Position numbers and translations under genes: made by a program | IMG/VR virus record: IMGVR_UViG_3300035540_000034 | Location: 1 to 61,034 of that record | DNA: 61,034 nucleotides | Source of the DNA: a virus | Direction: 5' to 3' (one strand) | The notes under the pieces: model-generated | What the model saw: the letters and a program-made list of their open reading frames with translations, nothing else | Database searches by the model: none | What the model was told of the DNA's origin: nothing | Shown here: positions 1 to 61,034 of the stretch, piece after piece | Layout of the letters: every line of letters begins with the position of its first letter | Position numbering within the stretch: the first letter of the stretch is position 1

Positions 1-127
1 AAGTTATCTAGTTAAAGAGGAACTGATAGCTGCGGTTGAAGGAAATAAAAGCAGCAAGACTCATTACATAGTCAATCTTGCTCGTACACCTGTACAAAAG
101 CAAGGCCAAGATGGATTGTTTATCCTT
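1..127. repeat. Terminal direct repeat, copy 1 (identical to 60908..61034)
   Basis: First 127 nt read identical to the last 127 nt. This implies a circular or circularly permuted unit of 60,907 bp. Confidence 0.95.
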
Positions 128-2395
128 CAAGGTATCAGGCGTAGAGGATTACATTATGGACTAGAACTATCTTATCCCTCTTACTGGAGTTTAGAGCAAG
201 CTGACTTTGATGGTGATCAAGGGTCCTTGAAAGCTATAAGCCAAAAAGCTTTAATCAAAGGGTTTGGACTAACAGGTGAAAACTTGCAAACAAGGTTAGG
301 TGAAAACCTGAAGGATTACTGGAGAGATGTCCATTTAGATGCTTACTTTGGTAAACCTTTTGCTTTCAAGTGGAGTGATAGTATCCCCAACTCTGACATC
401 CCTGAATTGCAAGCTGTAACAGGTATGGCTATATCTGGCGTAATGTTAGGAAAAGGTTACAGTCGCTTACTTGTTAATAAAAATGTACCTATTACACCTG
501 AAGAAGCTGGTAAGATTGAACCTGAAAACAAAGGTGATGAAGTTGTTGGAGACTATTTTAGTCCTAAAAACAACACCTTTAATATCAGTAATAATATGAA
601 TAAGGTGGTTTTCTTTAACAGCAAGGATGGTAAGATAGACGGTAAAACTCAAGTTTTTGGTGGAGCTAATATGCTTAGCATCAATAGTAAGAATATAGAA
701 GGACAAAATTATGTAGCTTACTATTATGAGGCTGATGGAGACTATTACATCTCTCTTGGTAAAAGTGCTAGTGACGGATATGGTCATCAGATGTTGCTCA
801 CAACTAAGCTTAAGAACGATACTGACCCTTTAAGCAAGAGTAATATTGATAATGCTTTAAATAGAATTGCTAAAGAATCTATCAAAAATGAGTATGATCA
901 GGATAGCCTTGATAAACTCTACAAAACTTTTACCTCTGCTGATATTATAAAGGATGACCAAAAAATTATACACAATCGTAGTTATCGTATGTCAACTATG
1001 AATGGTTTAGTTAACACTATTTACAACACTACTGTTGAACATCAGAAATACTTTGGGAATTACAGAATGTTGAAATTACACAGTAGACCCGACAATAAGA
1101 TGTCTGCTTTCAATATAAGAGAGGATGTTAAAAATGCTTTCCCTCGTTTCTTCATTGCCAAAGATATATCTATTGGTGGTTGGTCTGGTCAAGGTGTAGC
1201 CAAGAACGGTATGTTTAAAGTGGATGTGGAAAATGAGGCACTTCGTAAAAAGGCTACCAGCTATCTGGCTAACAAGAACAGTAAAATAGTAAATTCTATC
1301 ATAGATAAAGTTCTGGACAGTAAAGAGATTACTCTTAGCCAGAGAGACTATGAAGTGTTAACAGCTCCCTTTATGAGTAAGGGTGAGGTAAACTTAGATG
1401 CAGCTCTGGAAGTTATTGATAGAAACAACTTGGATGCAGATAAGTTGCCATTTCCACTTAGTCAGCAAATAAAGTTTTTAACCAAACTCAGAGACAATGA
1501 TGCTTCTGGTTTTAAGAACATACTCAAGGGCATCCTAACCAAGGAAGCTCTTGGTGAACTTGGTGATGTCTATACTCAAGATAGATTCTATTCCTACCCA
1601 GATGAAGCTAATTATCTTACCAATGGAGCTAAATTAGATAGCTTTGTTAATACAATAAGAAGGCTTATCCCTAACGCTTCACTTCGAGGTGCTCTTAGAA
1701 CTTTTGAACAGATGTCTAATATAGGAGTTAATGTTCAAAAACTTGATAAAGCTGAATCTCATGATGAGATAGTAGGAGCCATTCAAGCTGAAGCTGCCAG
1801 AAAGTATGGTGGTGAGTTTGACAATGCTGAGCAGGTTAAGCACTTCTTCAATGAGATGGGCTTAAAGTTTGTTCATGAGACCAGTTTGAAATCACAGCAA
1901 GATATAGTAACAGCTGGACTGAGAGCTGCTGAACTTGCTGATGACAGGGTTGTAGCTGCCAAGATAGCTAAGAATATTATCAAGAACTTTAACTCTAATC
2001 CTGACAAAAATATAGGGACTTGGAAGCTAGTTAACAGCAAAGGTGAGGATGTAAATATTGCTCAACTTGCTGCTAGGCTTGGTAGTATGTTTGGTAAATT
2101 TACTGGCAAGAACAACGAAAATCACTATATGAGAAAAAACCTGCAAGCTACCTTCAGTGCCTTGATAGATAATATGGATAACCTCCAGAAGAATATTCTG
2201 ATACTGAACACGCAAGGGTTGTCCAGAAAAGTAGCCCAAACTATTCGTAATGATATCTCAAATGGTAAGATAGGATCCAGAGGGTTTCAAGCTTTCCATG
2301 AACACATGAACAAACTGATGGGAGTAGAATTGTTAAGTCCAATATCAAAGTCTACCTCAATTATTAACGATAATAAATTTGAACTATTCTGCTAG
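128..2395 (+). CDS. 3' segment (755 codons + TAG) of a 2,923-aa giant virion-module protein continuing from 54531..61034 across the circular junction; carries a beta-prime-like RNA polymerase active-site signature
   Basis: The phase of 54531 and 128 coincide after subtracting 60,907. There is no stop until TAG 2393-2395. ORF-track entry 116..2395 is only an internal-Met tail. Sequence reads NLARTPVQ...QADFDGDQG. Confidence 0.85.
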   Translation, partial: QGIRRRGLHYGLELSYPSYWSLEQADFDGDQGSLKAISQKALIKGFGLTGENLQTRLGENLKDYWRDVHLDAYFGKPFAFKWSDSIPNSDIPELQAVTGMAISGVMLGKGYSRLLVNKNVPITPEEAGKIEPENKGDEVVGDYFSPKNNTFNISNNMNKVVFFNSKDGKIDGKTQVFGGANMLSINSKNIEGQNYVAYYYEADGDYYISLGKSASDGYGHQMLLTTKLKNDTDPLSKSNIDNALNRIAKESIKNEYDQDSLDKLYKTFTSADIIKDDQKIIHNRSYRMSTMNGLVNTIYNTTVEHQKYFGNYRMLKLHSRPDNKMSAFNIREDVKNAFPRFFIAKDISIGGWSGQGVAKNGMFKVDVENEALRKKATSYLANKNSKIVNSIIDKVLDSKEITLSQRDYEVLTAPFMSKGEVNLDAALEVIDRNNLDADKLPFPLSQQIKFLTKLRDNDASGFKNILKGILTKEALGELGDVYTQDRFYSYPDEANYLTNGAKLDSFVNTIRRLIPNASLRGALRTFEQMSNIGVNVQKLDKAESHDEIVGAIQAEAARKYGGEFDNAEQVKHFFNEMGLKFVHETSLKSQQDIVTAGLRAAELADDRVVAAKIAKNIIKNFNSNPDKNIGTWKLVNSKGEDVNIAQLAARLGSMFGKFTGKNNENHYMRKNLQATFSALIDNMDNLQKNILILNTQGLSRKVAQTIRNDISNGKIGSRGFQAFHEHMNKLMGVELLSPISKSTSIINDNKFELFC
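203..217 (+). other. Codons for DFDGD (putative catalytic metal-binding aspartate triad)
   Basis: gac ttt gat ggt gat is in frame with the giant ORF. The context QADFDGDQ matches the invariant NADFDGDQ of multisubunit RNAP beta-prime. Confidence 0.7.
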
Positions 2396-2403: not shown

Positions 2404-5400
2404 ATGTTGTGTCCTGCTAATGTAAGAAAACCAGATAAGATTAAGATAGAGGGTTTCGAGGGAGATTCTCTGGTTGGTAAGCTTAATGACTTAGCTCAGA
2501 TAATGACTTTCATGAAAGATCATCATGGCAATGTCTTTGAAAAGATACATTCTGAAGGTACAGAAGCTAAGCTTACCGAGAGTGTAGAGTCTTACCTGAA
2601 AACACTAACTGACGGTGAAATAGAAAGTGTTAATGATCTGAAGAAGATCTCTCGTGAACGTCAAATTGCAATTGAAAGAGAGTTGGATCTAGCTATAGAT
2701 AAGGTAGCCAGCTATGATGGCTTAGATCTTACTAAGCAAATACAAGATACTGAAAGTGAACACACTAGTAACCTCTATCATCTGATGAGAGCTTTCAAAC
2801 GTAAAGACAACAAGATGTATAAGTTCTTTAATGCTGTCTTACCTAAGACCTTAAAAGGCTTCTTCCACTACAATATTCAAAGACAATTTGAACAGATACC
2901 CCCTATGAAAGAAGCGTATGCTGATTACCTTACCCATAAAGATTACTCAGAAGGTAGAGCTGCTACCTTAGATAACCAGTTAAGGAAGTTAGCCAAGGTA
3001 GCTTATAAGGCTGCTAAGATAAAGGTTTCCTTTGCAGAGTTTAACTCTATGGTCAGAAAGGTAGATGTTGAATCAGGTAAGATAGATCCTGACGTGATGA
3101 TGAGGATCAAAGATGTTCTTAATGCTGAGAACAACAATGATGCTTCTGTACAGAATGTTGTTAGTAACTTACTTCGTTACCGTAGAAGCTTCAATAAAAT
3201 AAATTATGGATATGAAACTTGGGACGAAGTCAAGCAACATGTTGACAACTATCGTAAACAAAACCCTGAAGCCAGCAAAGAACTTACAGACAACCAGATA
3301 GCTCTCAAGTTAGCTCCTGAGAACTCTATTCTAGCATTCTATCGTAATTCAATAAACTCTTTTAAGCGACTAAGAAAAGGTGCTGAGAATAGCGATCCTG
3401 TTTTTGGACAGGAACTGGATACCTTTGAAAGGATAATAGATAACTTCTCACCGGCTAAAGATTACCTGCCAACTAAAAAGATGGATGATGACTCTATAAG
3501 TATTATGGCTGAGAGTCTTCAGGATAAAGGTCTTCCCGGTGCTCCTAGTTTTCTTAAGCATAAGCGAAGCAATGTCGATGACGGGGATGTTCTGGATATT
3601 GCCAGACACAACATCGGTTACTTTAATTATGTAGCCAGACAGATGAGTTTAGCTGCACTTGTTAACAAAGCTAAAGCAACTACAGACATGATGGAATCTT
3701 CTACCTTGTGGATGAAAGGAAGCAAAGGTAAAACTGTTAGTGGTGCTTATGTAGCTATGAAAGACTGGATCTATGGCATGGAGAGGGTGCTTAAGAACGA
3801 CTTTCGTAAAGCAGAATCTTCTATCGAGAAAACGTTAAGGAATACTGTAAACACGGTAAACCTTATCCCTGCTCTTATGATGGCTTCGCCCTCAACAGGT
3901 GTCTCCAACTTAGCTGGTGGTTTCTTACAGCTCTCCAGTAAAATGGGACTCAAGGGGGCAATGGATTATTTTAAAAACAATAAACGTTACCGTAATGAAG
4001 ACTCAGAATTGTATGGTGTAGCTGATAAGTTTGCTCAACAGTATATAACGGGACTAGGTAAACCACAGGAATTTCAAGTATTTAAAGACGATAATGAACC
4101 TAGCTCTACTTATGGCTTACCAAAGAAGATCACCTTAGAGAATGCTTCTAAGATGGGTCGAGATGCTGCTAACAAGATAGCTGACTTCTCTACTAGAACA
4201 GGTTTATTAAGGATATTAAGTTTGCAGTCAACAGAGGGAATGTTACGTGCCCCAGTTGCTGGTAAGTTATATGAAACTATGCGTGACAAGATAGCTTTAT
4301 CTCCTCAGAGATATAAAAACTCTGATGGTAGCTATAACAAGAAAGCTTTACAAAACTTAGCAAGAGAATCTTCTACTAATGCTCTTTATGAAATGAATAG
4401 AGCCCTTGGCAACTTTGACCAAACTAACAAACCTATATGGACATGGGCTTTAGACAAAGGTCTGATTGGAGGAGATGATACCAATGCTGCTCAAAGAATG
4501 GCTATGCAAATGTTGGGAGCAGGAGCCAAGTTATGGTATATGTTCAGGATGGTAACTGAAACTAACTTTGGCTTGTTTACTGACAGTCTTGTCAAGATGA
4601 GCAAGTATAGTCAAAAGCGTTCTTCTATAAAAAGTTTGAGCAGAAACCATGTATCAGGAGCAGGGTTTGGTCTTTTCATACCAGCTGCTATCGCTATAGC
4701 TAACTTTGCTTTTGATAAAGATGAAGATTCCCTGCAAACAGGATTATTAAAATCTACTGATATGCTTGATGGTGTAAGCGGAGCAGCTAAACTATTATAC
4801 GGTATGGCTCCCTTAGTATCTGATATGAAAATACCTGAAGCTGAGTTTGCCGATGTGTGGCGTGATAATATGCGTTGGGCTACCGGTGTTTTAGGTGGAT
4901 ACAGTGTTATGGATATTGCTGATGGTATAGCCACCGAAGGCGGTAAAGCTCTTGCTAGCAAAGATTTTAAACAGAATGTTTTACGCTTTGCTTTCCAACA
5001 TACACTACCATACAACCTATATAGAATGGGTACCTTTGGTGTAGAAACTGTTAAGAAACTGGGCTATAAAGTAGATGAAGATATAGATACGGTCGGTATG
5101 ACTCGTAAGGAAGCAGAACAAGCTCTGTTTTACGGAGCTAGAAGTAATGCAGCTAAAGCTTCCAGAGAACTCAGGGAGTCATTAGGAGACTTATCAAAGA
5201 TAGATTATTTATCATTTATCGAGAAGTTTGGAGAAGCCTTCTTTTATAGAGCTGACACTGAAATGGGAAAACATGGGTTAGCAATGTATAAGGCTGATAA
5301 GGCTGAGTCTGTTATAAATGGACTCTTTCGCCTCAACATTTACAACCATCCTAATCTCTATCATCTAACTCCTATGGCTAAATATGAGAAACAACAAGCT

Positions 5401-5505
5401 GCAACAGCTTTTAGTGAGATCTACAGGAACTACGATGATGAGCTAACAGTGGACAGCATGGGGAACTTACTCCGACAAATTACTAAATATGGAAGGATAT
5501 ACTAA
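2404..5505 (+). CDS. Large (1,033 aa) virion or ejection protein; helical N-half and hydrophobic Gly/Ala-rich segments (internal cargo or tape-measure-like)
   Basis: ATG lies 8 nt after AGGAG and directly follows the giant ORF. Segments such as GAGFGLFIPAAIAIANFAF look membrane-active. No catalytic motif recognised. Confidence 0.55.
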   Translation: MLCPANVRKPDKIKIEGFEGDSLVGKLNDLAQIMTFMKDHHGNVFEKIHSEGTEAKLTESVESYLKTLTDGEIESVNDLKKISRERQIAIERELDLAIDKVASYDGLDLTKQIQDTESEHTSNLYHLMRAFKRKDNKMYKFFNAVLPKTLKGFFHYNIQRQFEQIPPMKEAYADYLTHKDYSEGRAATLDNQLRKLAKVAYKAAKIKVSFAEFNSMVRKVDVESGKIDPDVMMRIKDVLNAENNNDASVQNVVSNLLRYRRSFNKINYGYETWDEVKQHVDNYRKQNPEASKELTDNQIALKLAPENSILAFYRNSINSFKRLRKGAENSDPVFGQELDTFERIIDNFSPAKDYLPTKKMDDDSISIMAESLQDKGLPGAPSFLKHKRSNVDDGDVLDIARHNIGYFNYVARQMSLAALVNKAKATTDMMESSTLWMKGSKGKTVSGAYVAMKDWIYGMERVLKNDFRKAESSIEKTLRNTVNTVNLIPALMMASPSTGVSNLAGGFLQLSSKMGLKGAMDYFKNNKRYRNEDSELYGVADKFAQQYITGLGKPQEFQVFKDDNEPSSTYGLPKKITLENASKMGRDAANKIADFSTRTGLLRILSLQSTEGMLRAPVAGKLYETMRDKIALSPQRYKNSDGSYNKKALQNLARESSTNALYEMNRALGNFDQTNKPIWTWALDKGLIGGDDTNAAQRMAMQMLGAGAKLWYMFRMVTETNFGLFTDSLVKMSKYSQKRSSIKSLSRNHVSGAGFGLFIPAAIAIANFAFDKDEDSLQTGLLKSTDMLDGVSGAAKLLYGMAPLVSDMKIPEAEFADVWRDNMRWATGVLGGYSVMDIADGIATEGGKALASKDFKQNVLRFAFQHTLPYNLYRMGTFGVETVKKLGYKVDEDIDTVGMTRKEAEQALFYGARSNAAKASRELRESLGDLSKIDYLSFIEKFGEAFFYRADTEMGKHGLAMYKADKAESVINGLFRLNIYNHPNLYHLTPMAKYEKQQAATAFSEIYRNYDDELTVDSMGNLLRQITKYGRIY

Positions 5506-9917: not shown

Positions 9918-10017
9918 TTTTCCTCCTAGAAAACAAAGACACCTTTATTTTTAGAGACACAAACAACTAATAAATGGAGGTTTATTGTTAGGTTGTAATA
10001 AAGGTGCCTTGTTATCA

Positions 10018-10635
10018 TTATTCTGCTTTATCTAATCTTAGATAAAGTTTTTCCATTTTCATCATTTCATCCCGAGAGTACTCCACAATCTCAGGGATTC
10101 TTGCTTTATTGAAGTCTATCTTTTTCTTCTTATTATCTTGTCCAAAGACAATTTGAAGAATAGTATCAAGACTCCTTTCTCGATTTTCTGACATATCATA
10201 ATGGCCACGTCTGTCGCCTCTAAATAGAAGTGGCTCTAACCAACGAACACTAATATCAGCATCAAGAACTGTAGCCCTATTCATGATCACAGGTATATCA
10301 AACTTCTTACCATTAAAGGTAACAAGAGTCTTACCGTATTGAATAGTATCAAAGATGGCCTTGTAGGCTATCTCTATCAGTTCTTTCTCTGAATAGTCAT
10401 CAATAGTGTAAGTAACTAGATCTTTGTCAGCTTCCTTAATATTTACAACTACAACTCTTGCGAACCAAGGTTTAAGTGCTAACTCATTGATGAGTTTTTG
10501 CTTTTTCTTCTCGACATTTCTCTTGATCTTCTCCGGATCAGTCCAATTACTAGGAGCCTTAATCTTGTTAAAGATATTAGCCTGATTGGCTGTCCCGAAG
10601 TCTGGTCGAGTTTCTAGATCTAATATTGTGTACAT
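10018..10635 (-). CDS. DnaQ/PolB-exo-like 3'-5' exonuclease (RNase H fold)
   Basis: ILDLET (Exo I, DxE) and TFNGKKFDIPV (Exo II) motifs. Confidence 0.7.
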   Translation of the reverse strand: MYTILDLETRPDFGTANQANIFNKIKAPSNWTDPEKIKRNVEKKKQKLINELALKPWFARVVVVNIKEADKDLVTYTIDDYSEKELIEIAYKAIFDTIQYGKTLVTFNGKKFDIPVIMNRATVLDADISVRWLEPLLFRGDRRGHYDMSENRERSLDTILQIVFGQDNKKKKIDFNKARIPEIVEYSRDEMMKMEKLYLRLDKAE

Positions 10636-10636
10636 A

Positions 10637-12535
10637 TTATTCTCCTTCTACATTAGTAAAGTCTATCTCTTCTGGTCGTGGGGGAGTGTTACCAATTTTA
10701 TGATTACCTTCCCAAGATAGGTCTACATCATAATCAGCAGGTGCATATTTATCTTTTGCTACAAAGATTCTAAACACACGATCTTGGCCACCTTTCTCGG
10801 GTCTCCAGCAAGTCAGTACATGGTCAGCTAGGTTTACTATCTCACCGCTGTCCTTAGCTGAATCCATGCCTAATCTCATATTGGCGTTTCCTGCCAGATA
10901 TTTAGGCACTTGTACCAAAAAGATTACAGCTATATTGTTCTTCTTAGAGAAGTTCTTCATGGTCTGAGCAATATTGATAGCTCTTTCTGTGGGACCATTG
11001 CCTTTAGCTGGTACCATTCCAAGGTAATCTATTACTAAGACTTGAAACTTTCTATTCATTGTGTGGGATATAGACTCAACATAGTCAGGTATCTTTTCTA
11101 CGTTAATACTGGAGTCGTCTACAAAGGTGACATTCTGCATGATACCTGAGAATTGTTGTTGAGCAACTTCATCGTTGAACAGTTCTTCCTTAGATATGTT
11201 GTGTTTCTTTCTGATTACCTGTGCAAAACTAGAAGCTGCCATATCATAAGATAAGAACAGAAAGTTTATATCTCTAAAGTGATTGATAAGATTGAGTAAA
11301 AAGGTTGTTTTCCCAGATGATGATCCTCCTACAAGACAACTAATATGGCCATGTGATGGTTTGATAGGTGAGATGTTAAGATTAGGATATAACCTTGAAG
11401 GTACTAACCAGCTGTTAGAACTTTCCTTACTTAGCTCTTTCATCAGTAAAGTAAAATCATTACCAGTGAATACATGTTTTTCCTGCTCGTTTTCTCTGGT
11501 AGGATATTCTATACAATGTTTGTCACAGTAACGAGATTTAATCTCATCCTGACAATTGTAAAGGTAACCTGGATAGTAATCAATGATCTTATTTATATGA
11601 CCATTTGGAAGTGGATCATCTAAACTTTTATTCCAAGCCTTTAGTATATTGTGGACATAAGACTTAGGCATAGCTAGATTCTGGGCAAAGTGAGACATAA
11701 TCCTCAGAGCTGTTTTATTACGGTGATTAGGGAAACTAGTTCCATGTAGTATATTATGTATACACAATTTCTGACCATACGGATATTGTTGGCTGGCACT
11801 ACTATCTCTTACATCATATTCTTCTTTGTCACCGTAATTTTCTCGTGCTTCATCAGCCAGTGTAGGTTTTTCAATTGAAAGGAAAGGTTCTACTTCTGTA
11901 TCTGGAGCAACATCTGCGTTGCTAAAGATATCATCAATGACATCAGGCTTTACTACATTTCTTTTGAAAGCAAAGCATTTTGTATAGTCATCAAAATCTC
12001 CCTTGAACACGAGCTCTTTCTTTTCTTCACCAGTTATATTGTGTTTAGAGAAAGGAGCTCTAATAACTCTAACAGCATCATAGATGCTAAAGTCTACATA
12101 AGGTTCAAGATCGTCATAAAAATCTATAATAGCTTCAGCAGTTTTTCTTGCTACCAAGTTGAACTTATTGTCATACTCTTTAGGGTAAGCTATATAGTTT
12201 TTATGTATGTATAAGTGGAATCCTTTCTTGCCTGAAAAGAATATCCTATACTTAATATTATCTTCTTCTAAATCTAAAAGAAGATTGATAAGAGCCTTGG
12301 TTGGTTTCTCAAGTCCTTCATCACAATCAACATCAAGTATAACCCACTCACCATAAACAGGGCCTTTATATCCTTTAACTTTACCGGTGTTCGCAATATG
12401 AGTTGCCATCTCTTTTCCATAGTAATAGGCGGAGGTATAAAGAACATTGGCAGACTCTATTGACTCTTGTAAGGACTCAGCCCTCACCACCTGACGGTGA
12501 TGAGTGACTGAATCTGTAAGTAAATAAAGCCTCAT
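10637..12535 (-). CDS. Bifunctional primase-helicase: N-terminal archaeo-eukaryotic primase (prim-pol) domain + C-terminal RecA/DnaB-type helicase
   Basis: VILDVDCD and GKKGFHLYIH (AEP motifs). GGSSSGKTTF (Walker A) and VLVIDYLG (Walker B). Confidence 0.8.
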   Translation of the reverse strand: MRLYLLTDSVTHHRQVVRAESLQESIESANVLYTSAYYYGKEMATHIANTGKVKGYKGPVYGEWVILDVDCDEGLEKPTKALINLLLDLEEDNIKYRIFFSGKKGFHLYIHKNYIAYPKEYDNKFNLVARKTAEAIIDFYDDLEPYVDFSIYDAVRVIRAPFSKHNITGEEKKELVFKGDFDDYTKCFAFKRNVVKPDVIDDIFSNADVAPDTEVEPFLSIEKPTLADEARENYGDKEEYDVRDSSASQQYPYGQKLCIHNILHGTSFPNHRNKTALRIMSHFAQNLAMPKSYVHNILKAWNKSLDDPLPNGHINKIIDYYPGYLYNCQDEIKSRYCDKHCIEYPTRENEQEKHVFTGNDFTLLMKELSKESSNSWLVPSRLYPNLNISPIKPSHGHISCLVGGSSSGKTTFLLNLINHFRDINFLFLSYDMAASSFAQVIRKKHNISKEELFNDEVAQQQFSGIMQNVTFVDDSSINVEKIPDYVESISHTMNRKFQVLVIDYLGMVPAKGNGPTERAINIAQTMKNFSKKNNIAVIFLVQVPKYLAGNANMRLGMDSAKDSGEIVNLADHVLTCWRPEKGGQDRVFRIFVAKDKYAPADYDVDLSWEGNHKIGNTPPRPEEIDFTNVEGE

Positions 12536-12537
12536 TA

Positions 12538-13041
12538 TTAACCGGAGGCTTCCTGTTTTTCTTCCTTAGGTGGTTCAAAGTCATCGACTCCGCCAAATTC
12601 GTTGACTTTTCCTGTGTCTTCAGAGAAAGGTGAGGCAGGTTTATCTTCTTGGATTTGACTAGAAGTATTCTTGCTTGAAGGTCTTAGTTTTTCTGCGTTG
12701 AGATAGCCTCCAGAGTTTTTAACTTTAACTTCAAGTGGGCCACGCCACTTTTTGTTAACAGTCTCAACTTTCATCTCTTCAAGAGAAGGTAGTTCTACCT
12801 TACCGTCTCCAAATCCCTCCTGCTTTAAAGCTCTCAGCAATGCTTTAGCTTTTCTAGGACTAACCTTAACACGACCTTTGTCGTTCATGAACATAGATAT
12901 AGTGTCAGCATAGTTTCCATTTTCGCTACGTTGCATAACAGGAGTAAACACTGCCATATAACCACCTTTGATTTCACGGATTCCTTTAAAGTAGCACAGT
13001 ACCCAACCATTTTGTATCGGTTGATCTAATTCTAGTATCAT
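12538..13041 (-). CDS. Possible single-stranded DNA-binding protein (167 aa)
   Basis: Sits between the helicase and the Sak4-like ATPase. Disordered C-part ends in an acidic DDFEPP tail like SSB tips. No fold evidence. Confidence 0.4.
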   Translation of the reverse strand: MILELDQPIQNGWVLCYFKGIREIKGGYMAVFTPVMQRSENGNYADTISMFMNDKGRVKVSPRKAKALLRALKQEGFGDGKVELPSLEEMKVETVNKKWRGPLEVKVKNSGGYLNAEKLRPSSKNTSSQIQEDKPASPFSEDTGKVNEFGGVDDFEPPKEEKQEASG

Positions 13042-13049
13042 AATACCTC

Positions 13050-15437: not shown

Positions 15438-15698
15438 TGTGGAGCCTCCTTTTTCTCTAAATACAATTTAAAGATTAACCGAGCTAGCTTCTTTATGTCA
15501 AGTTCCAATTTATCTCCTCCAATAGTAGTAATGACTTAATATTTTGGATCTAATCCGTTTTATCAAACAACAGATTGTGCGTATGATACTAAACATTTTT
15601 TCTTCTTTCTTAATTTTTTCTTGACATATAGTTATCTAACATGGGAACATGTAAATGTTGTTAGCGAATATCTGTCAAGCAGAAAATTACAGGAGAGA

Positions 15699-16073
15699 AT
15701 GATGTTGGATTTTCAGAAAGAATTCAAGGTTCGTAAGAGTGTGGGTGGACGCCTTGCTGCATGGAGAAAGAAAGCTGGCCTTGGCCAGACCGAATTAGCC
15801 GAAAGAATCGGTATCGGTCAAGCTGCCCTTTCTCGTATCGAGAGCGGCAATCTTCCTCTCCATGTTATCCAGTTAAAAGAATTAGCCAGATTAGGGGTAG
15901 ATTTACATTACCTTATTGTCGGTGAGTCTTTTGAAAATAAAGACCACAACAAAGAGGTAACCCGACTAATCAAGCAAATTCATGAGTTGAAAACTAAAAA
16001 TCAAAAGTTGAAAACAACTCTCGAAGCTAAAGATGAGAGATTGTTAGCACTTATTGATAAGTTAACTGGATGA
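15699..16073 (+). CDS. XRE-family helix-turn-helix transcriptional regulator (CI-like repressor candidate) with C-terminal coiled coil
   Basis: GQTELAERIGIGQAALSRIESGN HTH. Divergent from the integrase. ATG 15699/15702 after AGGAGAG is preferred to the TTG 15621 of the ORF track. Confidence 0.8.
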   Translation: MMLDFQKEFKVRKSVGGRLAAWRKKAGLGQTELAERIGIGQAALSRIESGNLPLHVIQLKELARLGVDLHYLIVGESFENKDHNKEVTRLIKQIHELKTKNQKLKTTLEAKDERLLALIDKLTG

Positions 16074-31787: not shown

Positions 31788-31897
31788 ATCACCTTGAATT
31801 TTAGTTGGATTTGAAGAGCACATAATTTTTACTTAGCTGTCCAGAATGTTTGCTCGGTTACTGTCAATTGAATGGTAATTCAGTTTTTGAGGAGAAC

Positions 31898-44948: not shown

Positions 44949-44958
44949 GGAGTAAATT

Positions 44959-45627: not shown

Positions 45628-45640
45628 AAAGGAGTAGATT

Positions 45641-53120: not shown

Positions 53121-54515
53121 ATGAGTAATGGAAAACTAACTGAAGAACAAGTTAAGAGAGCTACTGCTATAGTAGACTACTTAGAAGAATTTCATGATAT
53201 ACCTAGAGATAAGGCCGCTGCTATTGTTGGTAACTTTCACGTAGAAACAGGCGGTACTTTTGATCCTGAAACAATAAACCCCAATGACAATGGGAAAGCT
53301 GCTTATGGTCTTGCTCAATGGAGAGGCAGTAGGGCTAAAAAATTAAAAGATTTTCTTAAAAGCAATTCTCAGGTTGACCCAGACAAGATGAAATTTGTTG
53401 AGCATGTTTTTGGCAATAAAAGCGCATTAGCGACTACTCAATTAGATTTTTTGGTACATGAACTTAAGGGTAGTGAGTCTAAAGCTTATCGCGAGCTTAA
53501 TGCTGCAAAAGGAGTTAAAGATTCTGCAAAAATCTTTAATGAGAAATTTGAAAGATCTGCCGATAAATCTAACAAGAGACCAGACTTGGCTGAAGCTTAT
53601 TATAGTATTGTTGGGGAAAGAGAAAATTCTTATAAGCCATACTTTGGAGATAAGGCCATAGAAGAACACTATAAGTATCTTAGATTTGTCGAAAAGGCAA
53701 AGAGAAACGGTATCCCTATAGTAAAAGTTAAAACAGGATTAACAGGCAAATATGGGGAAGATGTTGTTAAAGAAATGCCTATGAGTTTGGTACAAGAAAA
53801 ACTTATAGACAAAACGCTTGATTATGACGACATCAAGACACCTGTAACAACCGAAAGTAACGACTCGCCTGAAGACAATATAGACATTGCAGATGAGGAG
53901 ACGGTAGAAGATCTTATAGATTGGGATGATCTGAAACCTATTAAAGATAGTCTAATTAAGAGCTGGATGCCTAAGTTAAAGTCAGTATTAGCACAGAATG
54001 AAGCTAATATGTATTTAGCTGCCATGGGTAACCAGACTGCTATTCAAGGTATACATGATAATAACAAAACTATTAAAGCTCTTCTTTCTAACATAGAATC
54101 TTTAGGTGGAATGAACCCTGACAATCCTGACTATGCAACAGCACAGGAAGCCTATGACAGAATTAAGATTATGGGAATGTCTCCTACTGAACAGGGTATC
54201 TATTTACAAGAGCTAAAGAATAAAGGTTTTGAGATGCAAGGTCTTGCTCAAGCTATACCTAGCTTATTTACTACTCTCTCAGCTACAATCAGAGGCAAGC
54301 AAGAGCTTAAGAACAGCATTATTAAACAGTTTGAGGGTGACGAAAACACTCACCAACGCAACCAACAAGTTCAGAGTATCAACAAAGAGATACAAGAGCT
54401 TACCAATCAGAGATCTCTTTTATATAACATTCTTAAGAATAAACTTATTGATTCTGACTCTACTGAAGAAGAGAACCAGATGAATCCACTTATGGCGATG
54501 TTGCTTAAACAATAA
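53121..54515 (+). CDS. Virion-associated peptidoglycan hydrolase (phage tail lysozyme-type N-domain, 464 aa)
   Basis: AAIVGNFHVETGGTFDP....GKAAYGLAQWRGSR matches the tail-lysozyme signature (G N...E(S/T)GG ... G..QW). Confidence 0.65.
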   Translation: MSNGKLTEEQVKRATAIVDYLEEFHDIPRDKAAAIVGNFHVETGGTFDPETINPNDNGKAAYGLAQWRGSRAKKLKDFLKSNSQVDPDKMKFVEHVFGNKSALATTQLDFLVHELKGSESKAYRELNAAKGVKDSAKIFNEKFERSADKSNKRPDLAEAYYSIVGERENSYKPYFGDKAIEEHYKYLRFVEKAKRNGIPIVKVKTGLTGKYGEDVVKEMPMSLVQEKLIDKTLDYDDIKTPVTTESNDSPEDNIDIADEETVEDLIDWDDLKPIKDSLIKSWMPKLKSVLAQNEANMYLAAMGNQTAIQGIHDNNKTIKALLSNIESLGGMNPDNPDYATAQEAYDRIKIMGMSPTEQGIYLQELKNKGFEMQGLAQAIPSLFTTLSATIRGKQELKNSIIKQFEGDENTHQRNQQVQSINKEIQELTNQRSLLYNILKNKLIDSDSTEEENQMNPLMAMLLKQ

Positions 54516-54530: not shown

Positions 54531-57500
54531 ATGTCTTCAATTGGAACTAGTACATTAAACAAAAGTAAATATCAACCAGTATTCACTTCCCAAGAAGATA
54601 CTCAGATATTACATAAGCTAGCAGAACATACAGATAAAAAGTTTCAGGACAATGATGTGCTTAACTCTCTTAGAAAATTTAGAGAGTCTACTCAAGTTAA
54701 GGGTAATACTGGTGCTCAAACATTGCTAGCTGTTCATGAGCATCCCGGTCGTGTATACGGGCTGACAGATAGCAATACTAATGATACTGTTGCTATTTAT
54801 AGAGGACTACAAACAGAAACAGCTGAAATGGCTTTACGTGTATACAAAATACATGGTGAAGACAAGGAAGCTGCTAAGAAAGCAATTGAGTTTATAGATA
54901 ACTCTGCTAAAGATCTATCAGGTTTTAATAGCAACAAAACCAAAGAACAGGGCAGGTTTCAGAACAGATTAGCAGCTTTCTCTGCTTCCAATAAAAACTA
55001 TGCAGCTGGTTATATAGATTACTTTGGTGAACTTGATGGTGGCTGGCATCAAACAAGTTTAGATGCTGGTATAAAGTTGACCACTGATCTAGGTGCAGCG
55101 GTCACACTTGCTAGTCAGAAACCATTACTTGGTAAGGTTGCTGGCTTCATTCTAGGACAACGTGATGAAATGGCTGCTGTTCGTGAAAACTTACAACAGC
55201 ATGAATCTTTCGCCGGACTCTCCAGAGGACAACAACAATTGTGGAATACTGTAGGATTAGGTTTAACTGTTGCAGAGACTTGGGCTACTGGTGGTATAGC
55301 TAAAGGTATTGGTAAAGCTACCATGACTCACTTCATGCTAAACTCTACTGGTGATGCCTTAATGAGCAATGTTGGTTTGGATCGTAAATATATCTCTGGT
55401 GAAAACCCTCATGTTGGTTCCCTAATACAAACAGCTGCTCTTGATTACCTTACTTACAAAGCTACTATGGGAGTAACTGGTATATTAGCAGAGAGTGTTC
55501 CTTCCCTGTCTAGTTCATTCTACAATGGAATGATGACCAACGTCTGGGCTAGTGCAGCTGCTCCAGTAGCAAGACTTGGTACTGATGTTCTCGCTGACAC
55601 TGTTGTCGATTATGCTTTTTATAATGTTGGTGAGAAACTGCTTCCTTTTGAAAATACAGCTCAAACCAAAAGACAATTTGGTAGTGATAGCTCAATAAGT
55701 GGTAACATTGTAAATCGTCTTGGTATGAGGATAGCTGCCAGCTTAACCAAATCTGCCCTTACCAAAAAAGGTATTACCGGTATGAGCCAAACCTATGACT
55801 GGGCTAAGAAGAATTATGGCAGCAAAGGTGTAAATAAACTAGGAGCAAGGATATTTGCCTTAACCAATTCAACTATGCCTTCTCACATTATGGAGATAGA
55901 CTCTCAGCTCAAAAAGCAATATAAGGCGTACAATAATACAGCAGACGCTGTAAAGCCTTATGGTGTTTCTGGTAAACCTTTAGTAAGCAAACAGATGTAT
56001 ACTGCTTATTATATGTCTAAAGAGATGGCGACTAATTCTATCTTCAGAGACCTTGTAGATTATAAATTCAACCCTGATGCAACTAAGATAAATAACTTTT
56101 TAACATCTAAAGATGTATCTCCCTTTAAGGCTGTAAGTAAAAATCTAGCATCCCTTGGTGCTCGTAGTTTCTTCCGCAGTAATTTAAGCTTAACAGATAC
56201 GCCTGATATTACCGACATGATAAAAATTATGCAAGCAACTAACCCTAAGCTAAAATTAGATGCAAGTGATCTTGATAGTGAAGGCGAGAAAGCTCTTATG
56301 GGAGCTTTTACTGAGGATCTTTTTATTAAACTTAGTGAGATATATGATAAGCATAAAGCTGATCCTGAAGTAGCTAGAGATGAAGTAAATAAGTTCTTAG
56401 GTGCTATGGCTAAGAATATTGAGATCACAGGGTTCTCCAATATACCTAAAGGTGTAGCAGAGGATGGTAGTATAGCTCATATTATTAACAGCTCTTCTGC
56501 TGAAGAAGCGTTTAACAAAACAAACTTTACTGACCAAGAAGGTAAAATGGTTATCTTTAATCAAGTTGGAAAGTTCTTTGGTGAGTCAGGTGATGCTGAT
56601 AGTAGTGAGAAGCTTGCTGTTGAGGTTGATCCTGAAACTTCTTTAGAGTTCTTTAGATGGGCTGAAGATATCAGAACAACCCAACCAGTGCTTGTTGTAC
56701 GTAACAGGACAGGTATACACAATACAGAGTTAGCAATGCCTAAAGACTCTCAGTATAGATCTGCTATGAATAGAGCTGTTGAAGATTTTGGTGCACATGT
56801 ATTCAGAAGAGTTTATAATATCAATACACCTGAGGGTATGAAAGAGATCGCTTCTAATGATCCAGATTATGGTAATGAGCTTAACAAAGTTTTAGTAGAT
56901 GTTAAGCGTAAAATGGAGAACCTAAAAAGAGTTTCTAAACTACAAGCTCTACCTGATGACAGTGCTGAACTTGTAAAACAATTCATGACTCCTCAGCAGA
57001 TTAAGACCCTTCTTCAGCATGATAACAAACTACTAGATGAATGGAACCATGGTAATAAAGAAGATGTGTTAGAGCAGGTTAGGAAAACTAAAAAGGCTGG
57101 AGATAAAGAAGCTAAGAGATTACAGGCAGTTATTAGTGCTGTAACAGGAGATCTTTCATCCCTGATCAAGGAGCCTAACTTTATTGATTTGAGTGTTGGT
57201 GGTTTTACCGTTGATACCAATAACTTACGGTGGTCTAGCAATCGTATAAACAACACAGATTATGATGGTTTTCGTGAAGTTGCTACGCGGACTGCTCCTA
57301 CCAGAAACCAACAACCTGAAGAGTTTCTAAGTAAACTTCATAAGACTGCTGGTGTTCTGTTAAAGAACTATACTGACAAGTTGGTTTCAGAAGCTAATGG
57401 AACAGGACGCTATCAGGACGAAGGTGGACGTAGTGCTGAAGTAATGAGATTGCTGGTTAAGACTGGAATGTTGGTTGAAGCAGTAGGTAACAGGATTGAT

Positions 57501-60500
57501 ACCGAAGTCCTTGAATATTCGCAAAAACAATTTGAGAACAATCAGGAAGCTATTTCTAAACATACAGATTTGCAAAAGCTAGTTGATGCTCCTGGTTTTA
57601 GATATATAGCTCAGCTTAACAAAAAGACTGGTGAGGATAACAGTGAAGTTGCTACTATAGCTATGTTCAACCTACTTGAAATACCTTACAATATCGGTAA
57701 GGTACGTCAGCAGGTGGTTCCTGTTTTAAATCAGATTGGTGTAGACAAAAAGGGATCTACCTTCTTTGCCATGCTTGCTAGCCTTGATGATAAAGAAGAT
57801 AGTTCTGCTGAAGTCAGAGCTGCTATGAGAGCAACTAATTCTGGACTTAACCCTTATAAGAAGATGACGGTTAGAGTCAATGGAGAAGACATTACTCTTA
57901 ATAATGGTGAGTATGGTCTTAATGAAATAGAGCATATTCGTTACCATGAGAAACACAAATCTACCCCTGTAAGCCCTGAAGAAAAGAAAGGTATGTTGAG
58001 AAGGGGTTTAGCTTTAGCTGCTCAAAAGCTAGCAGATATTGAGTATCATAGAGAGATGGCTAATAACAATCCTACTACTAAGAATGATATGGACAATATC
58101 AGAAAGACAGTAGAATCAAAAGTCAAAGCCATCCTTAATGATGATATCGATAATGATATAGTTGTTGACCTTAAGTTACGACAAGAGGAAAACTCTAACC
58201 CAAGAGCAATTAACAAGAAGCCCTTTGTGGTAGAGTCTATAAAGGTAGATGAAGCAACTAGTAAGCAAACAGTAGCTTTTGACAGAGTCTATAATACTTC
58301 CTTCAAAGTGCTGCGTTCCAACGAAGCAGCAGCTGGTGGTAGTGTTGTTACAGATAGAGCAGCTAGGACTGAATTTGAGATTAAGAAGACTATTAAAGAT
58401 GAAGATGGTAACGAGATAGATAATGCTGCTATTATAACAGATTTCAAAGAAACAAATGACCTACTTATTAAAGCTATAAAGGATACTGGTATCAATGTTA
58501 GTACAATGGTAAGAACCATTATGGCTAAACAAAGAGCTATATCGGATCCGAAGAATCTTGAGAAAGATACTGCTGATGCTATAAATTCTGTACTCAAGAA
58601 ATATGCTGGCAACTTCATGGACAAGCTCTCTACTGAAGAACAACAACGTGACTTTGCTTACCAGCTGATGAGACGTGAAAAGTTTCTATCTAACCTCAGA
58701 CAGAAGCTAGATCTGACTGTAAAAGATTTAGGTTTAGGTGGTAGGGTAGATACTAGTTTTATGTTGGAGAAAAGTGAAGTTTATCTTAGTAACGATAACT
58801 ATAGTGTTATTGACCTGTCTCTACCAAAACAGTTAGGCAAGAACATAACCGCCAGTGATTTCTTTGAAAGAATGAAAGACAAAGGCCTACGTATAGTAGG
58901 TATGGTAGGTAATGGATCTAAGTTATTAGTTGTGGATACTCCTGCTAGTGGCAGAAATTTAACTAGCAGAGAACAGGTCAAGATCAGGAAAACTCTTAAA
59001 GATATAAGTCATTCATATAAAGATCTCTACAAAGATGCTCCAGACGAAGTTAAGGAGTCTAGTCGAAACTATCAGCTATTAAAAGATGATGAAATCGACA
59101 GTTTGTTAAAGCAAGCTATAGAGAAACAAGGTGCAGAAGATGTTCCCAACAAGGGTAACACTCGTAAAAGCTTCTATAATACAATTGTTAGAAAACTGTT
59201 AGATAACCTTAAGGCTAAAGTTGAGAATGAAAAGATAGGCGATAAAACAGTTAAGCAGGTGTTAGAAGAAGTCCACAATAAAGATGGTGGCGACCTTAAT
59301 CGTGAAGCGGCTAGCACTAAAAGAAGATTTACAGCAGCTCTTGAGGAAGTCAATAAACGATTCAGTCAGCTCAAAGATATTGTCAATAATAATCAAGACG
59401 AGATGGACAGTGAGACTCGTCAGAAGTATACTGATCTTCTCAATGCATACAGAACAGTGTCTGCACTTTCCAAAAATGCAGCAAACGATATGGATGAACT
59501 GTTTAACCTTAAAGAGAAGCTTGGAGAAGCTAAGGCTAAGAAAGAAGAGTTTAAAAGACATATAGAAAGCCTGAAGAAAAGTAAAACCCAAGAGGTTAAT
59601 GACATAGTCCATGATAGTTATATTAGGGTTCTTAATGAGCTAGAGGGGCTAGCTGATAAAGAGATAACTGAAGCTGAAGCTAGAAAGTCTCCTCACATCG
59701 CTCTTGATATAGAAAAGAAACTAGATGTAGTCAAGAACATTGATGAGAATATAGACAAGCTTGGTAAGCTTAAAGATCCAGTTAAAATAGAAGAGATGTT
59801 CTGGAGATATGTAGTCTATGGCTCTAAGGCTTACACTACTTCTGCTAAAGATATAGCAAAGTATACCAGTCTTATGACTACTGGTAAGTTTACTTCTGAA
59901 CAAGCAGACAAAATTATAAAACAAATGAACCAAGCTGGCACTCGTAAGATTAGATTTGCTATTGTTAAGTCTAATGAGATCGATGGTGTTCCTTTAAATG
60001 ATGGTACAACTGGAGTAGCTGGTAGTTTCTTTAGAACTATGTCAGGTCTGTTTGGCAAGCAGATGACCAAGCTAGCTTACAATGATAGTTCTACTTCTCT
60101 TAAAATGAAGACAACTTCTTCAGAGGCCTTTATTGGTAAAACCCTAGGGTATGACAAAGATGGTAACAAAATTGTTATCAACAAGAATCCTACCAACAAC
60201 AACGAGCTTGATTCTGAAAATACTTTTGTGCTTACTACTGATACTATTAAACAGATAGGCCCAGAGTTCTTGAAGTTAATTGGTATTACAGATAAAGACC
60301 TTACGGGTGAGGCTAATGTTGTGTTGACTTCTGATATAAGTATAACTGGTAACAGCAATGGTAGAAAGAAATTCAAAACATTTCTATCTAACCTTGGTAT
60401 GCAGATAGATTCTCATTCATCAGCAAGAGATCTCAAAACTGGTAACCAAGGGCCATTGATGAGTGAGGTGGTAGCTAAGATGAACCAAGCCTTACTTGAT

Positions 60501-61034
60501 GGTGATAACACTCAACTCAACAAAGCTGTTGCTGTGTATAGTGAGACTCATGAAAGTATCAGGAAAGCCAACAATACTCTCAACAAACGTATTACTGACC
60601 AGTCGGAACGTGAAGGTATTTATATAGATTTAGCTAAAACCTTTAACACACCGCTTGATACCAGTAAAGGTGATTATGAGATTACCTCTAAAGAAAATAT
60701 TAGAGAAGACTTTAGAGGAGAAGCCTCCGATAGTGTTATACCGAAAGTTGCTATGTCTCAAGAGAAGCTAATCGATTTTGCTAGAGCTCATATTAACAAG
60801 TTAACAAAAGATAAGAAAAATGTAAGCAAAGAAATCTATGAGATTGTTAAAGGGTTTTATGATAATCCTAAAGTGCAACTCGATAACAGTAGTATAGAGA
60901 AGGTTCTAAGTTATCTAGTTAAAGAGGAACTGATAGCTGCGGTTGAAGGAAATAAAAGCAGCAAGACTCATTACATAGTCAATCTTGCTCGTACACCTGT
61001 ACAAAAGCAAGGCCAAGATGGATTGTTTATCCTT
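54531..61034 (+). CDS. 5' segment (2,168 codons) of the 2,923-aa giant protein; the ORF runs off the window end and continues at 128..2395
   Basis: ATG 54531 lies 8 nt after AAAGGA and after two in-frame TAA codons. I translated most of 54531..61034 codon by codon (all of 56460..61034) and met no stop. Absent from the ORF track because there is no stop in the window. Confidence 0.85.
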   Translation, partial: MSSIGTSTLNKSKYQPVFTSQEDTQILHKLAEHTDKKFQDNDVLNSLRKFRESTQVKGNTGAQTLLAVHEHPGRVYGLTDSNTNDTVAIYRGLQTETAEMALRVYKIHGEDKEAAKKAIEFIDNSAKDLSGFNSNKTKEQGRFQNRLAAFSASNKNYAAGYIDYFGELDGGWHQTSLDAGIKLTTDLGAAVTLASQKPLLGKVAGFILGQRDEMAAVRENLQQHESFAGLSRGQQQLWNTVGLGLTVAETWATGGIAKGIGKATMTHFMLNSTGDALMSNVGLDRKYISGENPHVGSLIQTAALDYLTYKATMGVTGILAESVPSLSSSFYNGMMTNVWASAAAPVARLGTDVLADTVVDYAFYNVGEKLLPFENTAQTKRQFGSDSSISGNIVNRLGMRIAASLTKSALTKKGITGMSQTYDWAKKNYGSKGVNKLGARIFALTNSTMPSHIMEIDSQLKKQYKAYNNTADAVKPYGVSGKPLVSKQMYTAYYMSKEMATNSIFRDLVDYKFNPDATKINNFLTSKDVSPFKAVSKNLASLGARSFFRSNLSLTDTPDITDMIKIMQATNPKLKLDASDLDSEGEKALMGAFTEDLFIKLSEIYDKHKADPEVARDEVNKFLGAMAKNIEITGFSNIPKGVAEDGSIAHIINSSSAEEAFNKTNFTDQEGKMVIFNQVGKFFGESGDADSSEKLAVEVDPETSLEFFRWAEDIRTTQPVLVVRNRTGIHNTELAMPKDSQYRSAMNRAVEDFGAHVFRRVYNINTPEGMKEIASNDPDYGNELNKVLVDVKRKMENLKRVSKLQALPDDSAELVKQFMTPQQIKTLLQHDNKLLDEWNHGNKEDVLEQVRKTKKAGDKEAKRLQAVISAVTGDLSSLIKEPNFIDLSVGGFTVDTNNLRWSSNRINNTDYDGFREVATRTAPTRNQQPEEFLSKLHKTAGVLLKNYTDKLVSEANGTGRYQDEGGRSAEVMRLLVKTGMLVEAVGNRIDTEVLEYSQKQFENNQEAISKHTDLQKLVDAPGFRYIAQLNKKTGEDNSEVATIAMFNLLEIPYNIGKVRQQVVPVLNQIGVDKKGSTFFAMLASLDDKEDSSAEVRAAMRATNSGLNPYKKMTVRVNGEDITLNNGEYGLNEIEHIRYHEKHKSTPVSPEEKKGMLRRGLALAAQKLADIEYHREMANNNPTTKNDMDNIRKTVESKVKAILNDDIDNDIVVDLKLRQEENSNPRAINKKPFVVESIKVDEATSKQTVAFDRVYNTSFKVLRSNEAAAGGSVVTDRAARTEFEIKKTIKDEDGNEIDNAAIITDFKETNDLLIKAIKDTGINVSTMVRTIMAKQRAISDPKNLEKDTADAINSVLKKYAGNFMDKLSTEEQQRDFAYQLMRREKFLSNLRQKLDLTVKDLGLGGRVDTSFMLEKSEVYLSNDNYSVIDLSLPKQLGKNITASDFFERMKDKGLRIVGMVGNGSKLLVVDTPASGRNLTSREQVKIRKTLKDISHSYKDLYKDAPDEVKESSRNYQLLKDDEIDSLLKQAIEKQGAEDVPNKGNTRKSFYNTIVRKLLDNLKAKVENEKIGDKTVKQVLEEVHNKDGGDLNREAASTKRRFTAALEEVNKRFSQLKDIVNNNQDEMDSETRQKYTDLLNAYRTVSALSKNAANDMDELFNLKEKLGEAKAKKEEFKRHIESLKKSKTQEVNDIVHDSYIRVLNELEGLADKEITEAEARKSPHIALDIEKKLDVVKNIDENIDKLGKLKDPVKIEEMFWRYVVYGSKAYTTSAKDIAKYTSLMTTGKFTSEQADKIIKQMNQAGTRKIRFAIVKSNEIDGVPLNDGTTGVAGSFFRTMSGLFGKQMTKLAYNDSSTSLKMKTTSSEAFIGKTLGYDKDGNKIVINKNPTNNNELDSENTFVLTTDTIKQIGPEFLKLIGITDKDLTGEANVVLTSDISITGNSNGRKKFKTFLSNLGMQIDSHSSARDLKTGNQGPLMSEVVAKMNQALLDGDNTQLNKAVAVYSETHESIRKANNTLNKRITDQSEREGIYIDLAKTFNTPLDTSKGDYEITSKENIREDFRGEASDSVIPKVAMSQEKLIDFARAHINKLTKDKKNVSKEIYEIVKGFYDNPKVQLDNSSIEKVLSYLVKEELIAAVEGNKSSKTHYIVNLARTPVQKQGQDGLFIL
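60908..61034. repeat. Terminal direct repeat, copy 2 (identical to 1..127)
   Basis: See copy 1. Confidence 0.95.

Follow-up and report, generated by a model that had tools for sequence, protein, structure and literature searches.

A putative two-barrel RNA polymerase module at the C-terminal end of a giant ejection-type protein in an apparently temperate phage

A stretch of viral DNA of 61,034 nucleotides (IMG/VR record IMGVR_UViG_3300035540_000034, positions 1 to 61,034; hereafter the window) carries a giant gene that runs through the joined ends of the record. Its product of 2,923 amino acids (aa) contains ADFDGDQ, the exact active-site signature of the beta-prime subunit of multisubunit RNA polymerase (RNAP). 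Residues ~1750–2923 of this protein probably represent a new, sequence-isolated family of single-chain two-barrel RNAP, lodged in a giant protein of the ejection type. The claim is put forward as the best hypothesis and not as a demonstrated fact. The observations behind it are the motif, its conservation, the spacing of an upstream element, the gene order and a weak in-register similarity to gp66, the virion RNAP (vRNAP) of the crAss-like Cellulophaga phage phi14:2; from these we infer its fold (with a second barrel), its activity, its packaging and the genes it would transcribe.

The beta-prime-type motif and its conservation

The heptapeptide is located at aa 2193–2199 and is encoded by nucleotides 200–220 of the window (GCT GAC TTT GAT GGT GAT CAA). 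In Escherichia coli beta-prime, residues 458–466 read NADFDGDQM, which gives an identity of seven out of seven residues. An earlier note on this DNA, made from the sequence alone, had quoted the peptide YIVNLARTPVQKQGQDGLFILQGIRRRGLHYGLELSYPSYWSLEQADFDGDQG and its full match to beta-prime; the peptide is quoted correctly, and comparison with the E. coli rpoC sequence confirms the match. The note had also called a chance match of seven residues very unlikely. From the composition of the giant protein itself, ADFDGDQ is expected 5e-5 times and DFDGD 0.018 times per 20,000 aa, and the motif is kept in two further lineages, which bears that judgement out; as far as sequence comparison goes, the conservation across lineages is a stronger argument against chance than the expectation for the 7-mer. 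The R-x-P-type element that the note had placed upstream is likewise real and is invariant in the two other lineages found. The features of the region are as follows.

56..238, + strand: putative catalytic barrel segment of the double-psi beta-barrel A type (DPBB-A-like), aa 2145–2205, from residues invariant in three lineages and profile placement on gp66
83..91, + strand: R2154-T-P2156, the R-x-P element, 40 residues ahead of the first Asp of the motif
203..217, + strand: D2194-F-D-G-D2198, putative Mg2+-binding triad; DFDGD also in the relative L003, DYDGD in the relative L001

In the three-lineage alignment, the motif region reads YIVNLARTPVQKQGQDGLFILQGIRRRGLHYGLELS...QADFDGDQGSLKAIS in the window protein, YLINLTRPPVDTYGQDTMFLVRGIRNGNIHNGFEVS...GGDFDGDNLIWRAIS in L003 and YWITFVRFPAQGKGQTAPFLIQGIRRIGVHKGVELS...HTDYDGDRA in L001. 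Invariant in all three are a Y, R-x-P, G-Q, an F, G-I-R, H-x-G-x-E-x-S and D-x-D-G-D. The lineages are only 21–29% identical overall, yet all of them keep R-x-P followed, after ~37 residues, by D-[FY]-D-G-D; because the motif residues are invariant at so low an overall identity, a chance motif is excluded, to judge from the alignment. Measured in 40-aa windows, the motif region is the local conservation peak of the C-terminal module, with 45% identity. From the Arg to the first Asp, the giant protein has a spacing of 40 aa, gp66 one of 39 aa and E. coli beta-prime, where the element reads NRAPTLHR, one of 35 aa. Furthermore, the local pattern RTPVQKQGQD--GLFILQGI can be likened to RIPNQ-GQSSNDPLQIV-GI of gp66 (RIPNQGQSSNDPLQIVGI). 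Past the Asp triad, a single residue is followed by a strand-like stretch in the window protein, L003, gp66 (where the strand is hydrophobic, as it is here) and beta-prime. Asn458 of beta-prime is not conserved, the three lineages having Q, G or H at this position.

The R-x-P element and the Asp triad together satisfy the filter [RK]xPx{20,100}DxDxD, by which Sokolova and colleagues accepted two-barrel RNAP candidates (PMC10770324, Supplementary Data 4). Elsewhere in the ~92,600 aa of ORFs (open reading frames) examined, known RNAPs are the only matches to the filter, apart from a single site that is not conserved. A fit to [RK]xP...DxDxD is seen in the 1,033-aa protein next to the giant, with DEDID at aa 891–895 (window 5074–5088), and its homolog in L003 (gene 10001–13045) has DTDVD; a K-I-P stands ~80 aa upstream of these DxDxD sites. 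The L001 homolog has lost this site through a deletion, which makes a catalytic role improbable. By itself, the regular expression is not specific. A Toprim-type DxD motif was considered for the giant protein and rejected: set against the general Toprim pattern, the invariant Glu lies only 13 aa upstream, the SLEQA before the Asp motif is no hydrophobic strand, and no Toprim model matches.

The whole giant protein has no family in Pfam or PHROGs and no tblastn match in 50,697 GenBank phage records. In a word-indexed search of 5.8 billion proteins, neither the whole protein nor the three-lineage alignment retrieved anything, although the L003 giant protein and two other proteins (P0006 and P0002) are in that collection; negatives of this search for long, Lys/Asn/Glu-rich queries are not trustworthy. 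An exhaustive phmmer search with aa 1750–2923 against 1.84 billion cluster representatives found two proteins only, both fragments: P0001 (345 aa), which matches the C-terminal end of the giant protein, and P0002 (239 aa), which matches exactly the motif region at 42% identity. The relatives were reached via the contigs of these two fragments and via P0004, a homolog of the downstream gene. L003 encodes a 2,912-aa ortholog, 28% identical, that aligns in two collinear BLAST blocks (aa 12–1475 and aa 1752–2923), and L002 and L004 fall in the same lineage. In L001, the giant gene appears as pieces of 1,853, 239 and 708 aa, broken by a run of 10 N in the scaffold (9950–9959) and then by one in-frame TGA within a conserved region (10718–10720; ...AAT GCT ATT TGA ATA GAT ATG...). 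Since the breaks are an N run and a single TGA, a split, multisubunit arrangement was rejected, and the reading frames point to one gene of ~2,800 aa. The in-frame TGA may result from a sequencing error, from a true split followed by a restart or from stop-codon recoding; read with the standard code, the remaining genes of this contig are long. No further members turned up when viral, metagenome and genome contigs were scanned with the downstream protein and the motif region, and the giant protein is a near-orphan with three lineages only in the data searched.

Bases 1–127 of the window are an exact direct repeat of 60908–61034, which gives a unit genome of 60,907 bp. Because 127 is a frequent maximum k-mer of metagenome assemblers, the repeat is most simply, and probably, the overlap of a circular assembly; a physical terminal repeat is an unproven reading. 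Position 128 is the first base past this overlap. When the ends are joined, a single ORF of 2,923 aa occupies 54531..60907 and 1..2395 on the + strand, starting with an ATG that has AAAGGA ahead of it and stopping with a TAG at 2393–2395. The ortholog in L003 is collinear with the giant protein through the join of 60907 to 1. The parts of the gene are listed below.

54531..61034, + strand: first and middle portions of the giant gene (aa 1 to ~2168); the true join is 60907 to 1, and 60908–61034 repeats 1–127
1..2395, + strand: C-terminal part of the giant gene (aa 2126–2923), ORF continued by the circular join
54531..55730, + strand: N-terminal ~400 aa, Gly/Ala-rich, 40–47% identical to L003 in the conservation profile
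59778..60907, + strand: start of the conserved C-terminal module (aa 1750–2125), from the second collinear BLAST block and the three-lineage alignment
59778..60907 and 1..2392, + strand: putative polymerase module of ~1,170 aa (aa ~1750–2923), with aa 1752–2923 aligned to L003 aa 1747–2911

The N-terminal ~400 aa contain no strong transmembrane segment and match no family in Pfam or PHROGs; a role in virion incorporation or ejection is a guess.

Comparison with known polymerase profiles

The set used for comparison consists of E. coli rpoB and rpoC, phi14:2 gp66 and eight more members of the crAss-like vRNAP family, including that of Flavobacterium phage Fpv1. Because the Asp motif was the selection criterion, it was left out of a profile-to-profile sliding test of our own. 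In this test, the 49 columns upstream of the motif find their best place on the crAss-family profile at gp66 1312–1360, rank 1 of 222 windows (column-shuffle p 0.0045). Free placement, with each of the three gap settings, puts the end of the upstream segment at gp66 1359 or 1360, directly ahead of the DFDID that begins at 1361. On beta-prime, the same segment has z = 2.0 (p = 0.033) at the homologous place, which is not the top match along that protein. In hhalign, the motif sub-alignment gives in-register top matches on gp66 1322–1339, on crAss-family columns ending at gp66 D1365 and on beta-prime 458–465.

The bridge helix of gp66 comprises residues 1529–1559 (Drobysheva et al., bioRxiv 10.1101/2020.03.07.982082). 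A second segment of the giant protein, aa 2261–2285, has its top sliding-profile match inside this helix in two of the three gap settings, and not against beta-prime or gp66 alone; its placement is collinear on gp66 with that of the upstream segment. In addition, aa 1815–1841 points to gp66 953–981 (VNQTDAQAWITPKRW) in some settings, is unstable with other gap penalties and finds nothing on E. coli beta. The rough chance of such a placement is ~0.01 for the upstream segment and ~0.03 for the bridge-helix candidate. As the scores are not exceptional, only the locations of the best placements are informative. The two additional candidates are as follows.

404..478, + strand: bridge-helix candidate, aa 2261–2285, ELQAVTGMAISGVMLGKGYSRLLVN, conserved in three lineages and picked by eye
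59973..60053, + strand: weak candidate for the motif of the second (beta-like) barrel, aa 1815–1841, NEIDGVPLNDGTTGVAGSFF, with an invariant D-G, from hhalign and the sliding test

Several results weigh against a polymerase. None of the three lineages matches an RNAP family of Pfam or NCBIfam at E <= 1–5, and searches of PDB sequences with the single protein and with the three-lineage profile are empty at E <= 10; no profile search puts the segment in a double-psi beta-barrel. In hhalign, the top match of the whole module on the crAss-like alignment is noise (P = 0.23), and the P-values of the motif sub-alignment, 0.015–0.27, are not significant. Hidden Markov models (HMMs) of the crAss-like vRNAPs, used with hmmsearch, do not rank the giants above decoy ORFs. 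In the sliding test, the family-wise p is 0.09–0.62, shuffled queries reaching such scores somewhere on the alignment; four of the seven query segments have non-collinear noise matches of similar z-score; and the expected sites are not recovered on the single sequences of E. coli beta-prime, E. coli beta and gp66. No trigger-loop candidate was identified in the giant protein, nor was the second (beta-like) barrel, for which aa 1815–1841 is the only, weak candidate. The AlphaFold2 models have a mean predicted local distance difference test score (pLDDT) of 33 and 36 and are unusable, the alignments holding only 2 and 4 sequences because the family has three lineages only; Foldseek against the PDB gave nothing at E <= 0.001, a result that is meaningless. 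Moreover, the N-terminal 400 aa are more conserved than the DFDGD region (40–47% per 100 aa), and a virion RNAP is unexpected in a phage with an integrase and a repressor-like gene.

The failure of the HMM searches is expected, because sequence similarity between two-barrel RNAP families hardly extends past the DxDxD region (PMC10770324; bioRxiv 10.1101/2020.03.07.982082); gp66 and QDE-1, for instance, are 8.6% identical over 479 superposed residues (bioRxiv 10.1101/2020.03.07.982082). In the low-confidence secondary structure, beta-strands flank the motif. The structural check proposed in the earlier note revealed no barrel, and it revealed no non-barrel fold either (pLDDT 33 and 36; Foldseek empty). 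Of the RNAP that the note had proposed, the exact motif, the R-x-P element (both conserved) and the giant gene in the late block stand, whereas a match to an RNAP profile or fold and a second barrel were not found.

Alternatively, the giant protein could be a structural or ejection protein of the internal-virion-protein type, in which the D-x-D-G-D loop would bind Ca2+ or Mg2+ for folding, for assembly or for some other enzymatic step, and in which the R-x-P would be coincidental in a conserved beta-rich domain. No profile or structure method found an RNAP family or fold, the greatest conservation lies in the N-terminal 400 aa and not in the motif region, and the [RK]xP...DxDxD signature, being poorly specific, also matches the 1,033-aa neighbour. 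However, the loop is not of the EF-hand type, whose pattern is D-x-[DN]-x-[DN]-G: its position 6 is not Gly and its position 12 is not Glu, on which grounds an EF-hand-like calcium loop was rejected. For such a protein, coincidence would also have to account for three things at once: the exact match of seven residues to beta-prime, the similar spacing and the way the upstream segment falls in register on gp66. This alternative is considered unlikely, though it is the most serious of those weighed against the diverged polymerase.

Within the module, aa 2405–2470 (approximately nucleotides 836–1033) have a weak Pfam match to the helical domain of the nucleoporin NUP120 (E 0.0038 with the module alone), and several crAss-like vRNAP genes in GenBank carry the annotation 'nuclear pore complex protein-like'. 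The coincidence probably reflects a common helical-repeat bias.

Proposed role and relation to known polymerases

In the favoured reading, the C-terminal ~1,170 residues would form a highly diverged, single-polypeptide, two-barrel, DNA-dependent RNAP. D2194, D2196 and D2198 would hold the catalytic Mg2+, and R2154 would correspond to beta-prime R425, the residue in contact with the ribose of the incoming nucleotide; aa 2261–2285 may be the bridge helix. The ~1,750 residues ahead of the module would serve packaging or ejection. The protein would be packaged in the virion, ejected with the DNA and put to transcribing the first phage genes without the host polymerase, as gp66, the N4 vRNAP and P23-45 gp96 are. 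Packaging and ejection are suggested by the position of the gene and the size of the protein: the gene belongs to the late block, where genes for a tail-lysozyme protein and for a large conserved protein flank it shortly ahead of the lysis genes, and its product matches known ejected proteins in size. The two neighbours are the following.

53121..54515, + strand: 464-aa protein with a phage tail lysozyme domain (Phage_lysozyme2, PF18013, E 2.8e-25)
2404..5505, + strand: 1,033-aa protein, syntenic in all relatives, with homologs 37–38% identical in L002, L003 and L004 and a weaker one in L001

The giant gene adjoins the lysozyme gene, as the earlier note had stated, and a tail lysozyme domain is also encoded upstream of the homolog in L003. 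The order of lysozyme protein, giant protein and ~1,000-aa protein is conserved in the relatives. The note had described the 1,033-aa protein as hydrophobic, which is too strong: only one segment, aa 750–771, is clearly so.

A two-barrel RNAP need not be injected, and the module might instead act inside the infected or induced cell, for instance on late genes, with its place in the late block incidental. The YonO protein of prophage SPbeta acts from within the cell in this way, and the present phage, with its serine integrase and XRE-type helix-turn-helix (HTH) protein, looks temperate, as SPbeta is. Yet a polymerase encoded deep in the late block cannot itself start late transcription, and a protein of 2,923 aa with ~1,750 non-polymerase residues and these neighbours fits ejected proteins such as gp66 and not the small YonO; a non-injected enzyme is accordingly regarded as improbable. 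A chance match without functional meaning in a fast-evolving giant ORF, which gains some room from the unspecified number of windows scanned for the note, among which rare matches will arise (DFDGD at ~0.018 per 20,000 aa), is highly improbable given an expectation of 5e-5 for the 7-mer and the invariance of D[FY]DGD and R-x-P in three lineages at 21–29% identity.

Among known enzymes, the putative ejected RNAP can be likened to gp66 (PDB 6VR4), which is also a giant single polypeptide (2,180 aa, against 2,923 aa here), is also encoded at the far end of a structural block, beside a 1,797-aa virion protein, and also lacks detectable homologs beyond its own family outside the motif region. There are, however, clear differences. 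No significant sequence similarity exists between the two (tblastn and HMM negative), and a gp66 query matches 145 phage records, neither this phage nor any relative of it being among them; by every sequence test applied, the giant protein falls outside the crAss-like vRNAP family. The motif here is DFDGD or DYDGD with the canonical Gly, whereas the nine sequences examined from crAss-like phages and Fpv1 have DFDID, DFDVD or DYDID. The module is C-terminal here and central in gp66. The genome measures 60.9 kb, compared with ~100 kb for the crAss-like phages, and has an integrase, a repressor-like gene and strong Shine-Dalgarno sites. In Fpv1 (NC_031914, 34368–47573; L016), a 13.2-kb gene of ~4,400 codons is annotated only as 'virion structural protein'; it contains a clear homolog of the crAss-like vRNAPs (E 8e-23 to gp66) with a DYDID motif, in a phage that is not classified in Crassvirales.

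Compared with bacterial beta-prime, to which the motif is identical, the giant protein is a single chain and not part of a multisubunit enzyme, and it matches no Pfam or NCBIfam RNAP model. P23-45 gp96 is a two-barrel RNAP at the N-terminal end of a 5,002-aa siphovirus tape measure protein that leaves the capsid with the DNA (PMC10770324). The likeness of the present candidate to it is one of concept, that of a two-barrel RNAP fused to a giant virion protein. Unlike in gp96, the module is C-terminal, the phage has a P22-like portal, and family scans of the window proteins recognised no tape measure.

YonO and the members of the clade of QDE-1 and eukaryotic RNA-dependent RNA polymerases are single-chain two-barrel enzymes with D-x-D-G-D. 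The catalytic motifs compiled in Supplementary Data 4 include DYDGD, which is the L001 variant, and DNDGD for the YonO profile (PMC10770324). Close similarity to YonO is excluded, as the exhaustive phmmer search found the two family fragments only, and the architecture differs: YonO is a small stand-alone protein of ~800 aa and is not known to be packaged. The N4-like vRNAP (Schitoviridae) is likewise a giant ejected virion polymerase (~3,500 aa) of a podovirus. Its fold is unrelated, of the T7-like, right-hand, single-subunit class, and no match to such a domain (Pfam RNA_pol) was found in any lineage of the giant protein.

Two-barrel RNAPs are the universal transcription enzymes of cells, and the highly diverged single-chain forms that phages and plasmids encode help to trace the origins of the enzyme and the source of the eukaryotic RNA-interference polymerases; each sequence-isolated family that keeps the catalytic core is a data point on the minimal enzyme. 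The present candidate is unusual in its cellular-type DFDGD, in its C-terminal place in a 2,923-aa ejection-type protein, and in a phage of about half the crAss-like size, unrelated to cultured phages and with lysogeny genes. Confirmation of the fold would place it as a new family within the two-barrel RNAPs. The fuller proposal is advanced tentatively: a previously unseen two-barrel RNAP family with canonical DFDGD would make up the C-terminal module of the main ejection protein in a small, apparently temperate phage with a P22-like portal and a host using Shine-Dalgarno sites. If it holds, a two-barrel RNAP would have been fused to DNA-delivery machinery independently once more, after gp66 and P23-45 gp96, and one would have to ask how repressor control extends to transcription by an enzyme that the host does not supply; we know of no earlier injected two-barrel RNAP in a phage also able to lysogenise. 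An active and injected enzyme would mean that host-independent early transcription is not limited to large lytic phages, and its ~1,170-aa module would be a compact subject for structural work. If the protein is not a polymerase, the case would show, as a caution, that conservation of an [RK]xP...DxDGD signature does not require the RNAP fold.

Genome context and further features of the window

The genes are arranged in two blocks. The + strand block extends from ~32.5 kb, through the join, to ~8.1 kb. It begins with a DNA repair exonuclease-like protein (PHROG 704), the large terminase, a P22-like portal (PF16510, E 2e-48) and an SU10-like major capsid protein, continues with many ORFs without annotated function, and then contains a 1,144-aa repeat protein, the tail-lysozyme protein, the giant protein, the 1,033-aa protein and an endolysin. 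The - strand block encodes a primase-helicase, a Sak4-like annealing protein, the serine integrase with a divergent XRE-type HTH gene, an ATPase and tRNA-Met. The integrase (13917–15437, PHROG integrase, E 9e-87) and the HTH protein (15621–16073) had both been named in the earlier note and were found again, and on these genes the phage is apparently temperate. The sigma70-like promoters that the note had seen in front of both blocks do not stand out, such sites being no commoner than in shuffled sequence (19 found, 18.5 expected), and no promoter motif specific to the phage was found to recur. Among the ORFs scanned, a set that left out the many short ORFs of the minus-strand block, there is no second RNAP and no sigma factor.

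The portal and the terminase are at best ~25% identical to those of any GenBank phage; an assignment of host or taxon from them was rejected, as these best matches are to unrelated phages. The phage genome has strong Shine-Dalgarno sites, which argue against a Bacteroidota host, so the host probably lies outside the Bacteroidota.

Near the divergence point of the two blocks, two repeat arrays stand close together. The first (31909–31964) is a tandem array of about seven copies of an 8-nt unit (ACTGACCG), and the second (31982–32053) is a purine-only tandem array of GAAGG/GAGGG units with 8/12-nt spacing. Both lie inside a doubtful 103-codon ORF with a GTG start (31880–32191, minus strand), and they could be origin or iteron-like, packaging or regulatory repeats. 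In the minus-strand block, two adjoining genes (19670–20431 and 20442–21191) encode proteins of 253 and 249 aa, neither of which has a family match; they share DNA stretches that are 72–76% identical, as if one gene of the early or replication block had been duplicated in tandem.

The 1,144-aa gene of the late block (48547–51981) contains at least eight tandem repeats of 30 nt (10 aa), roughly KP[IV]SQK[QR]SFS, at 48738–49049. These repeats account for the weak 'extensin / histone H1-like' Pfam matches of the protein, which has no PHROG match. Meanwhile, two other late genes, 44959–45627 and 45641–46138, have a near-identical ribosome-binding site and first codons (AAGGAGTAaATTATGGGCTGGAAAAAGATA; 44947–44979 and 45629–45661). 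The former has three internal 78-nt repeats and weak 'tail protein' PHROG matches, and the pair may be paralogous tail-fibre-like proteins with a common N-terminal anchor.

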